Part shown: one piece after another, positions 22,188 through 33,317 of the stretch
Layout: each line of letters begins with the position of its first letter
Numbering within the stretch: the stretch's first letter is position 1
Source: Escherichia coli
GTDB lineage: Bacteria; Pseudomonadota; Gammaproteobacteria; Enterobacterales; Enterobacteriaceae
NCBI RefSeq assembly: GCF_002854065.1
Contig: NZ_CP024147.1
DNA length: 64,000 nt
Direction: 5' to 3' (one strand)
Position numbers and translations under genes: made by a program
Notes under the pieces: generated by a model
Seen by the model: only the letters and a program-made list of their open reading frames with translations
Database searches by the model: none
Told to the model about the DNA's origin: nothing

Positions 22188-22323
22188 TTAATTAGTGATA
22201 TCGCTGATTAATTGCTGCTGCACTTTTTTACGATTATCAATTTCAACCACGATTTCTTTGAATTTTTTATCCGTGAGCGGATAAAACCAGATAATGACGA
22301 ATGCCAGTAACATAAATCCGCAA
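22188..22323 (-). pseudogene. uidB: 3' fragment of uidB (last 42 codons plus stop), detached by the IS1 insertion
   Basis: Hand translation of the minus strand across the target duplication continues the uidB frame ([42 protein letters not shown], then stop at 22188..22190); 415 + 42 = 457 codons. Confidence 0.8.
22315..22323. repeat. IS1 target-site duplication, copy 1 (AATCCGCAA)
   Basis: 9-bp sequence immediately flanking the IS1 end, identical to 23092..23100. Confidence 0.9.
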
Positions 22324-22338
22324 GGTAATGACTCCAAC

Positions 22339-22842
22339 TTATTGATAGTGTTTTATGTTCAGATAATGCCCGATGACTTTGTCATGCAGCTCCACCGATT
22401 TTGAGAACGACAGCGACTTCCGTCCCAGCCGTGCCAGGTGCTGCCTCAGATTCAGGTTATGCCGCTCAATTCGCTGCGTATATCGCTTGCTGATTACGTG
22501 CAGCTTTCCCTTCAGGCGGGATTCATACAGCGGCCAGCCATCCGTCATCCATATCACCACGTCAAAGGGTGACAGCAGGCTCATAAGACGCCCCAGCGTC
22601 GCCATAGTGCGTTCACCGAATACGTGCGCAACAACCGTCTTCCGGAGCCTGTCATACGCGTAAAACAGCCAGCGCTGGCGCGATTTAGCCCCGACGTATC
22701 CCCACTGTTCGTCCATTTCCGCGCAGACGATGACGTCACTGCCCGGCTGTATGCGCGAGGTTACCGACTGCGGCCTGAGTTTTTTAAATGGCGGAAAATC
22801 GTGTTGAGGCCAACGCCCATAATGCGGGCGGTTGCCCGGCAT
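22339..22842 (-). CDS. insB: IS1 transposase InsB (expressed as InsAB' fusion by -1 frameshift)
   Basis: 167-aa ORF with the canonical IS1 InsB sequence as I recognise it. Confidence 0.9.
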
Positions 22843-23036
22843 CCAACGCCATTCATGGCCATATCAATGATTTTCTGGTGCGTACCGGGTTGAGAAGCGG
22901 TGTAAGTGAACTGCAGTTGCCATGTTTTACGGCAGTGAGAGCAGAGATAGCGCTGATGTCCGGCAGTGCTTTTGCCGTTACGCACCACCCCGTCAGTAGC
23001 TGAACAGGAGGGACAGCTGATAGAAACAGAAGCCAC
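22761..23036 (-). CDS. insA: IS1 repressor/transposition inhibitor InsA
   Basis: 91 aa with zinc-finger-like CxxC...CxxC N-terminus; overlaps insB across the A6C slippery site. Confidence 0.9.
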
Positions 23037-23091
23037 TGGAGCACCTCAAAAACACCATCATACACTAAATCAGTAAGTTGGCAGCATCACC

Positions 23092-26208
<3,117 letters not shown>

Positions 26209-26536
26209 TGTGTTGCACACAGTTATCTGTGAGAAACCCATGGAAGAGAAATGGAAATAAAAAGAACTGACACCGCGATCAAAAAACCAAAAACTGCAAT
26301 ACCCACAGCGTGATATAGATCGCATTAATCTTTAAAACAGCGTTGACAGAAGCCATAAAACAAGCAATCGAACGTTCGTTCTATCGTATTGGGAACGATA
26401 AACTCTCATGACATATGGCTACGGTGAATATTTTAGGGAGGAATTCCCCGCTCCGGCGAGATTGTATTTTGTACAGGGAAATTAAAGTATGAAACGCGGG
26501 CTCAGTTGTCACCAGCCCGCGGAAAGAGAGAGAGAA

Positions 26537-27127
26537 TCAGGATGCGGTTAAGATACCGCCAATCATCGCGCGTAATCCCTGAGCAAACGACACTTCACGC
26601 GCCAGGTCTTCCGCTTCGATATCGGCCAGTACACCGTAGGTCAGATCCAGCAGTAAACGTGAAGTCATTGCCGTGTTGATGTCTGGGCTTATCTCGCCTT
26701 TTTGCTGGGCATCACGCATCCGCTGAGCAACAAATTCAGTGATCGTCATATGCTTATTTTTAAGCATGGCGGCGACCTGTGGGTTACGCATCCCTTCCGC
26801 CATAATTTCGACCACCAGCGCCCGTTGCCCAAAGGCTTCATGGGTGAGAGAGACAATAGACTCGACCATATAGTCAACAAAATGAATCCCTTCAATCGGT
26901 TCCCGGAAACGAGCCAGCGCCCTCTCCTGATCCTGTAAGATAATCGCCTGAATCAAGGCTTCTTTGGAGATGAAATGGTGATAGAGCGTCCCGGGACTAA
27001 TGGCGCAAGATTTACAGATGGCTTTCATCGAGGCACTGTGAAATCCATTTTCTGAAAAAATCTCTCTGGCAGCATTGAGGATCCGGGTCCGTGTCGGTTG
27101 TGCTTCAGTCTGCATGTTATCCATCAT
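26537..27127 (-). CDS. uidR: TetR-family transcriptional repressor of the glucuronide operon
   Basis: 196 aa; N-terminal helix-turn-helix of TetR type; located upstream of uidA. Confidence 0.9.
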   Translation of the reverse strand: MMDNMQTEAQPTRTRILNAAREIFSENGFHSASMKAICKSCAISPGTLYHHFISKEALIQAIILQDQERALARFREPIEGIHFVDYMVESIVSLTHEAFGQRALVVEIMAEGMRNPQVAAMLKNKHMTITEFVAQRMRDAQQKGEISPDINTAMTSRLLLDLTYGVLADIEAEDLAREVSFAQGLRAMIGGILTAS

Positions 27128-27237
27128 TAAACCATTATAGTTAGCGTGAATAACTAGTTTACCGCGTTGTCAGGTGAGCGCCTATCATTGCTGTTGAATA
27201 GTGCGAAGGCACACTCTATTCGTATGCTTTTCATCCA

Positions 27238-27257
27238 GCTATTGGTTAACCAATAGC
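27238..27257. promoter_or_regulatory. Perfect 20-bp palindrome GCTATTGGTTAACCAATAGC upstream of uidR (candidate operator)
   Basis: Exact dyad symmetry read from sequence; TGGT..ACCA arms resemble GntR-family (UxuR/ExuR-type) operators. Which regulator binds it is inferred. Confidence 0.4.
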
Positions 27258-27355
27258 CGTGATTTGGCTGCCAGTTGTTTAGCAGAGACGTTGATGAATT
27301 GCACACGCTATCCCGGTAAACAACACATACGGCTGTTTACCGGTTCGTTAGTGTA

Positions 27356-28234: not shown

Positions 28235-31030
<2,796 letters not shown>

Positions 31031-32315: not shown

Positions 32316-33317
32316 ATGATTGATACCACCCTGCCATTAACTGATATCCATCGCCACCTTGATGGCAACATTCGTCCCCAGACCATTCTTGAACTTGGCC
32401 GCCAGTATAATATCTCGCTTCCTGCACAATCCCTGGAAACACTGATTCCCCACGTTCAGGTCATTGCCAACGAACCCGATCTGGTGAGCTTTCTGACCAA
32501 ACTTGACTGGGGCGTTAAAGTTCTCGCCTCTCTTGATGCTTGTCGCCGCGTGGCATTTGAAAACATTGAAGATGCAGCCCGTCACGGCCTGCACTATGTC
32601 GAGCTGCGTTTTTCTCCAGGCTACATGGCAATGGCACATCAGCTGCCTGTTGCAGGTGTTGTTGAAGCGGTGATCGATGGCGTACGTGAAGGTTGCCGCA
32701 CCTTTGGTGTGCAGGCGAAGCTTATCGGCATTATGAGCCGAACCTTCGGCGAAGCCGCCTGTCAGCAAGAGCTGGAGGCCTTTTTAGCCCACCGTGACCA
32801 GATTACCGCACTTGATTTAGCCGGTGATGAACTTGGTTTCCCGGGAAGTCTGTTTCTTTCTCACTTCAACCGCGCGCGTGATGCGGGCTGGCATATTACC
32901 GTCCATGCAGGCGAAGCTGCCGGGCCGGAAAGCATCTGGCAGGCGATTCGTGAACTGGGTGCGGAGCGTATTGGACATGGCGTAAAAGCCATTGAAGATC
33001 GGGCGCTGATGGATTTTCTCGCCGAGCAACAAATTGGTATTGAATCCTGTCTGACCTCCAATATTCAGACCAGCACCGTGGCTGAGCTGGCTGCACATCC
33101 GCTGAAAACGTTCCTTGAGCATGGCATTCGTGCCAGCATTAACACTGACGATCCCGGCGTACAGGGAGTGGATATCATTCACGAATATAACGTTGCCGCG
33201 CCAGCTGCTGGGTTATCCCGCGAGCAAATCCGCCAGGCACAGATTAATGGTCTGGAAATGGCTTTCCTCAGCGCTGAGGAAAAACGCGCACTGCGAGAAA
33301 AAGCCGCAGCGAAGTAA
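32316..33317 (+). CDS. add: Adenosine deaminase
   Basis: 333 aa; metal-binding HxH motif near the N-terminus (DIHRHLDG) and conserved SLNTDDP motif near the C-terminus. Confidence 0.95.

Follow-up and report, generated by a model that had tools for sequence, protein, structure and literature searches.

The window analysed here is a 64-kb stretch (64,000 nucleotides) of an Escherichia coli chromosome with the gene order uidC-uidB-uidA-uidR-hdhA-malI-malX, all on the minus strand except malX. Annotation of matching genomes places uidA, which encodes β-glucuronidase, at 24335..26146 (minus strand) and uidR (also called gusR) at 26537..27127 (minus strand); uidR codes for the TetR-family repressor of uidABC and contains a Pfam TetR_N domain. 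The hdhA-uidR spacer harbors a perfect 20-bp palindrome, GCTATTGGTTAACCAATAGC (27238..27257), which is allele-specific in the outermost 3 bp of either arm. Its conserved 14-bp core, ATTGGTTAACCAAT (27241..27254), represents a UxuR-type (GT-N2-AC) box, as judged from its evolutionary footprint and its match to the uxuA/gntP and uxuR boxes. A preliminary description of this DNA had reported an exact dyad about 110 bp upstream of uidR, and we find it perfect over precisely the coordinates given there, 111-130 bp upstream of the annotated uidR ATG (27127), or 123-142 bp upstream of an alternative start at 27115.

The palindrome GCTATTGGTTAACCAATAGC has no second copy in the 64-kb window, even when 3 mismatches are allowed. 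Perfect palindromes of at least 20 bp occur twice in the window, compared with 0.11 expected per 64 kb from Markov-1 resamples. The shorter motif ATTGGTNNACCAAT returns two matches at ≤1 mismatch (0.17 expected in 64 kb), and both are located in uid regulatory spacers, one at uidR and one at uidA. The other perfect 20-bp palindrome, TTTCCTCAGCGCTGAGGAAA (33263-33282), is found inside the 3' end of a 333-amino acid open reading frame (32316-33317), which is probably add, and has no evident function. A perfect 16-bp palindrome, GATAAAACGTTTTATC (29372-29387), maps to the divergent malI-malX spacer and presumably corresponds to the MalI operator.

Two boxes of the same type precede uidA

Motif scanning and conservation define a uidA-proximal UxuR-type box, GATTAGTTAACCAATT (26193..26208, box B), with one mismatch to ATTGGTNNACCAAT. 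This is the related motif that had been placed 50-60 bp upstream of uidA, and it indeed extends from 47 to 62 bp upstream of the uidA ATG (26146). Box B is conserved in Escherichia and has counterparts (ACAAGTTAACCAGTT) in Enterobacter, Salmonella, and Cedecea. The preliminary description counted two motif copies at the uid promoters, and both are present, but it missed a further uidA box, ATACTGGTCAACCTTTAA (26171..26188, box A), also of the UxuR type and centered ∼20 bp from box B. Tandem boxes spaced 19-22 bp apart are likewise found upstream of K-12 uxuR and of gusA in Enterobacter, Salmonella, Cedecea, Yersinia, Erwinia, and Pantoea. The best promoter-like arrangement at uidA, obtained with a looser scan, is CTCACA-17-CAGAAT with a predicted transcription start near position 26198. 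Relative to this predicted promoter, box B would cover the -10/+1 region and box A would lie just downstream, and we infer the standard geometry of a repressor. CRP-like readings of CTGTGTGCAACACAG on the uidA side and of AGTGTGCCTTCGCACT on the uidR side were dropped upon visual inspection, as their spacing does not fit TGTGA-N6-TCACA.

Conservation is confined to a 14-bp core

The 20-bp dyad is real in this strain, but its extent depends on the allele: the K-12 allele reads GCTATTGGTTAACCAATTTC and is palindromic over 14 bp only (ATTGGTTAACCAAT). When aligned, the window and K-12 spacers are near-identical, with clustered differences immediately next to the core on the side facing uidR (...ACCAATAGCTGGATG in the window, ...ACCAATTTCAGAGTG in K-12). 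The right flank is AGC in the window and TTC, ATC, or TGC in other E. coli. Exact 30-mers representing the window and K-12 alleles are found in 1101 and 1796 of 5426 complete E. coli genomes, respectively. A 32-mer that comprises the left flank and ends at the core has a match in 4878 of the 5426 genomes, a megablast count for which a 28-base exact word is sufficient and which thus still includes variants in the last few core bases.

An alignment of 11 Escherichia sequences, among them E. whittamii and two divergent lineages, shows strong divergence in either flank of the core, whereas variation in the core itself is limited to a TA/TG center, one ACCAGT, and CTGG or TTGG in place of ATTGG in two lineages. 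The box is also retained in Escherichia sp. MOD1-EC7003, which lacks hdhA and has malI as the upstream neighbor. By the measure of sequence conservation, the constrained unit is the 14-bp box, and the 20-bp perfection is a strain- or allele-specific accident around this core.

The palindrome core has the spacing of UxuR sites

The core reads TTGGT-TA-ACCAA; its arms are of the TnGT/ACnA form, and GT and AC are two bases apart. Such a two-base spacing is reported for UxuR sites, whereas most sites of the FadR subfamily, those of ExuR included, have three bases (Suvorova et al., PMC4494728). As a comparison set, we retrieved the hexuronate control regions of K-12 (gntP-uxuA, uxuR, exuR, and uxaB). 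The gntP-uxuA spacer contains the boxes TGGTCAACCA and TGGTTAACCA (longer forms AAATTGGTCAACCATTGT and GATGTGGTTAACCAATTT), and the uxuR upstream region contains TGGTTGACCA and TGGTCAATCA (longer forms TATTTGGTTGACCAGTTT and TTACTGGTCAATCAAACT) 20 bp apart; all are of the TGGT-YR-ACCA type seen at uidR and uidA. In contrast, GT and AC are three bases apart in the boxes upstream of exuR (GTGGTATAACA) and uxaB (GTGGTAGAACA). This assigns the uid boxes to the UxuR type. Comparison with known operators, as the preliminary description had proposed, thus matches the core to the uxuA/gntP and uxuR boxes and not to the N3 boxes of exuR and uxaB. A working UxuR-responsive biosensor employs AAATTGGTATACCAATTT as its UxuR site (PMC8092373), and the Tutukina and Ozoline group, citing comparative genomics, includes uidR in the UxuR regulon (PMC10016265). 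Neither uidR nor UxuR sites appear in the supplementary data of PMC4494728, and a literal literature search for TTGGTTAACCAA returned a single, unrelated match.

In a scan of the 64 kb with a weight matrix built from the four K-12 uxu boxes only, box B comes 1st, with the palindrome at rank 6 and box A at rank 7, but with this very small training set scores of this size arise in 27-64 of 200 random 64-kb sequences.

GT-N2-AC boxes recur in gus loci of other genera

A scan of genome contigs with UidR yielded three loci, all from Escherichia. Additional gus loci were reached through UidR protein homologues (50-66% identity) in Enterobacter, Salmonella, Cedecea, Yersinia, Buttiauxella, Mixta, Erwinia, and Pantoea. 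At the gusA promoter, 7 of 9 genera have GT-N2-AC boxes, mostly as a tandem pair with 19-22 bp spacing and as three boxes in Yersinia; the Buttiauxella and Mixta gus loci contain none. A gusR-side box occurs once each in Enterobacter and Cedecea and is absent from the Salmonella and Yersinia gus loci. The exact motif GGTYRACC is found 12 times in 3959 bp of gus regulatory DNA from the nine genera (0.14 expected).

The Erwinia and Pantoea clusters are arranged as uxuB-uxaC-[GntR/FCD regulator]-gusR-gusA-gusB, with only 15 bp between the regulator gene and gusR. This regulator shares 73% sequence identity with E. coli UxuR and 50% with ExuR. Given this genomic linkage and the gusR-side boxes described above, coupling of gusR to UxuR appears to be a recurring theme that is reached in different ways.

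Several of these loci show additional features. A GCACTCA tandem repeat occupies the gusR-gusA spacer in Erwinia sp. S43 (at least 5 copies) and Pantoea coffeiphila (∼14 copies). In two Enterobacter hormaechei loci (L009 and L010), the neighbors of the gus cluster on its flanks are IS1, a group II intron reverse transcriptase, and IS elements. The L010 cluster also adjoins H-NS-like genes and partition genes of the plasmid type; this context suggests a mobile gus locus in Enterobacter.

A separate palindrome is the likely UidR operator

A different palindrome, AATCGAACGTTCGTTC (CGAACGTTCG; 26366..26381), lies between gusR and gusA and is a candidate for O1, an operator of the TetR-family protein UidR/GusR. 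Its GAAYGTTC core (palindrome CGAAYGTTCG) occurs once per gus locus and always between gusR and gusA, in 9 of 9 genera. The high-affinity GusR operator O1 has been deleted using primers DE6279 and DE6280 (Pellegrino et al., PMC9881133), after which expression was equal under repressing and inducing conditions and glucuronide-responsive control was abolished. We mapped the published 159-bp deletion to positions 26324-26482 of the window; it includes CGAACGTTCG and spares the boxes at 26171-26208. From its position in this deletion and its universal occurrence, AATCGAACGTTCGTTC is likely the UidR/GusR operator. It shares with the UxuR-type boxes the locus and the nature of a palindromic repressor site, but it is unrelated to them in sequence, is positioned 220-235 bp upstream of the uidA start codon, and, unlike the boxes, is universal in gus loci.

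Start codon and promoter of uidR

The real uidR start is probably the third in-frame ATG at 27115, which would yield a 192-amino acid protein. This start is supported by INRI-seq and by N-terminal mass spectrometry, and the first ATG (27127) is replaced by ACG in some Escherichia. A perfect TATAAT ends 6 nucleotides before the first ATG, and the uidR 5' UTR may therefore be only ∼12 nucleotides long.

A consensus promoter scan of the uidR region gave no match, and a looser scan returned three competing candidates. Two overlapping promoter-like arrangements, TAGGCG-17-TAAACT and TAAACT-16-TATAAT (27134..27184, minus strand), are contained in a block that is invariant in Escherichia. Visual comparison shows TAGGCG-17-TACACT at the equivalent position ahead of gusR in Enterobacter and Cedecea, with TAGGCG and TACACT about as far upstream in Salmonella. 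This block may be the uidR promoter. An RpoD SELEX signal in the hdhA-uidR spacer has instead been assigned to TTAACC-17-TATACG (Shimada et al., PMC3946193). The -35 element of this assignment, TTAACC, is the center of the palindrome, and the invariant promoter-like block is located ∼60-110 bp further downstream. The SELEX-assigned -10 element is poorly conserved (TATACG, CATACG, CTTACG, TAAACG, or TTCATG). In the Escherichia alignment the 17-bp spacer of this promoter is kept in length and varies in sequence, which would explain the variable flank of the box.

The segment GTGTGCCTTCGCACTATTCAACAGCAATGA (27186-27211) is invariant across the sampled Escherichia except for one substitution in the divergent 'E. 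coli' SCPM-O-B-8794, whereas the DNA from there up to the box diverges. It contains the imperfect dyad AGTGTG-CCTT-CGCACT and may be the site of another regulator of uidR.

Discussion

Our analysis points to the palindrome as a predicted operator of UxuR, the GntR/FadR-family repressor of glucuronate catabolism, with ATTGGTTAACCAAT as its functional core; we put the probability of this reading at about 0.8. That the motif resembles GntR-family operators of the UxuR/ExuR kind, as had been suggested initially, agrees with the K-12 uxu boxes, the N2 spacing, the footprint, and the recurrence in other genera. The analysis favors the UxuR half of this suggestion over the ExuR half, as ExuR sites are of the GT-N3-AC form. 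The proposal of one shared repressor for the uidR and uidA control regions is likewise supported by the UxuR-type boxes present at both. The palindrome has in common with the E. coli uxuAB/gntP and uxuR operators the TTGGT-YR-ACCAA sequence, the GT-N2-AC spacing, an A/T-rich periphery, and the occurrence as single boxes or as tandem boxes ∼20 bp apart, far upstream of start codons. It differs from them in being perfect to 20 bp in this strain, with outer GCT/AGC where the consensus has AAA/TTT, and in that its target is the gene of a regulator from another family (TetR, uidR). The ExuR operators (exuT, uxaCA, uxaB, exuR) belong to the same protein subfamily and pathway and share the TGGT half-site, but their GT and AC are separated by three bases and their right arm is AAC(A), as in AGTGGTATAACAAAT and AGTGGTAGAACACAT.

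The regulator that recognizes the box could in principle be a different one. TetR-family repressors bind short palindromes and often autoregulate, and two GusR sites, O1 and O2, are drawn upstream of gusA in PMC9881133; the palindrome and the uidA motif might thus be UidR operators, with the upstream copy serving uidR autoregulation. We consider this very unlikely. It is AATCGAACGTTCGTTC, and not the GTTAAC box, that accompanies gusR in all nine genera, and the glucuronide response is lost upon O1 deletion with the GTTAAC boxes left in place. Buttiauxella and Mixta have gusR and gusA but lack the box. Because CGAACGTTCG is universal, the GT-N2-AC boxes are also found at uxu promoters, and the hdhA-uidR spacer contains no O1-like sequence, the GTTAAC boxes do not appear to be UidR sites, and the alternative raised to this effect in the preliminary description is not supported. 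To our knowledge, classical genetics places the uxu promoters outside UidR control. That ExuR or an ExuR-UxuR heterodimer, and not a UxuR homodimer, is the main protein at the site is in our view unlikely. Such binding would fit with genomic SELEX, which when performed with UxuR alone recovered only the gntP/uxuA spacer and not the uid sites, but the accepted uxuR and uidA targets were also missed in that experiment (PMC5934670). The palindrome has two bases between GT and AC and not the three of ExuR sites and of the K-12 exuR and uxaB boxes, and in Erwinia and Pantoea it is the UxuR orthologue that is linked to gusR. Given the SELEX result, binding of UxuR at the uid sites may be weak or partner-dependent.

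Two further readings dispense with a bound protein. The palindrome could form an RNA or DNA hairpin, as part of an hdhA terminator or as a transcript-stabilizing stem, and its location downstream of hdhA and the predicted stability of the minus-strand transcript stem (-17.9 kcal/mol, z = -4.7 for the window allele) are consistent with this. The K-12 allele, however, folds no better than shuffled sequence (-7.5 kcal/mol, z = -1.0), and it is the outer arms that are unconserved and the central bases, which would form the loop and inner stem, that are conserved. No T-run follows the palindrome on either strand, so that, with the stem lost in K-12, the site does not resemble an intrinsic terminator. 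In addition, a separate hairpin is present nearer to the hdhA stop codon, and the box is kept in the MOD1-EC7003 locus that lacks hdhA; we regard the hairpin reading as extremely improbable. That the palindrome is a functionless product of chance receives next to no credence from us: perfect 14-bp palindromes are indeed expected ∼5 times per 64 kb, but this core is preserved between diverged flanks, corresponds to an established type of operator, and represents a motif that occurs in gus regulatory DNA of several genera at ∼80 times the expected rate. The hairpin closer to hdhA (27313-27343) is a 10-bp inverted repeat, CCGGTAAACA/TGTTTACCGG, just past the stop codon (-22 kcal/mol, no T-run). 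By eye, its outer pair shows apparent compensating changes in E. whittamii (TCGG...CCGA), and it is probably the hdhA 3' hairpin.

If UxuR is the cognate regulator, a UxuR dimer would bind the box with one winged-helix domain per TTGGT/ACCAA half-site, and the two further boxes at 26171-26208 would place UxuR over the uidA promoter region. Build-up of D-fructuronate or D-glucuronate, products downstream of glucuronide hydrolysis, would release UxuR from the DNA, and in this way both the glucuronidase operon and uidR, the gene of its repressor, would become linked through UxuR to hexuronate pathway flux. Actual binding of UxuR at the uidR site is an inference, as is the way in which UxuR would affect uidR, in sign as well as in mechanism; repression is the most likely effect. 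UxuR could repress by occluding the -35 element (TTAACC) of the SELEX-assigned uidR promoter. Should the proximal block be the real promoter, the box would be centered at about -98 to -120 in E. coli and about -60 in Enterobacter and Cedecea, and UxuR would act by another route, for example as a roadblock to hdhA read-through, by looping, or by activation. Since the SELEX-assigned -10 element varies and the proximal block is invariant, the site may lie ∼100 bp upstream of the real start, which would be odd for simple occlusion.

It is conceivable, if rather doubtful, that the variable flank beside the invariant core acts as a natural tuning knob of UxuR affinity or of uidR promoter strength. 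The flank would do so by completing the 20-bp dyad in about one-fifth of E. coli genomes and by altering bases between the putative -35 (TTAACC) and -10 elements. Strain-specific UidR levels and β-glucuronidase inducibility in the gut would be the consequence.

Classical genetics of the 1970s and 1980s established that uidA is under dual control by UidR and UxuR. Our reading of the palindrome is thus the correct view of an already known and catalogued element, with uidR already counted in the UxuR regulon. The analysis cleanly separates the two operator types of the uid locus and identifies only 14 bp of the palindrome as constrained, and it adds nothing new in principle. The mildly new points are that the palindrome is extended in an allele-specific manner, that the flank beside the core varies, and that uidR and its box are retained where uidABC has been lost. 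The wiring of the gus locus is of practical interest, as gut bacterial β-glucuronidase reactivates glucuronidated drugs.

The loss of uidABC concerns Escherichia sp. MOD1-EC7003 and SCPM-O-B-8794, in which these genes are deleted and uidR is directly followed by ydgA. In both, uidR is intact (92-94% identity) and preceded by the UxuR-type box; SCPM-O-B-8794 additionally contains the two uidA-side boxes and has lost the CGAACGTTCG site. Because uidR and the box are retained in lineages devoid of uidABC, UidR could have targets beyond the gus operon.

The uid operon of the strain analysed here carries a lesion of its own. A 768-bp IS1 element with InsA and InsB open reading frames is inserted in the 3' end of uidB (22324-23091) and is bordered by a 9-bp target duplication, AATCCGCAA (22315-22323 and 23092-23100). 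The uidB reading frame comprises 422 amino acids compared with 457 in K-12, and the IS1 element separates uidC from the operon; the strain may be defective in glucuronide uptake.
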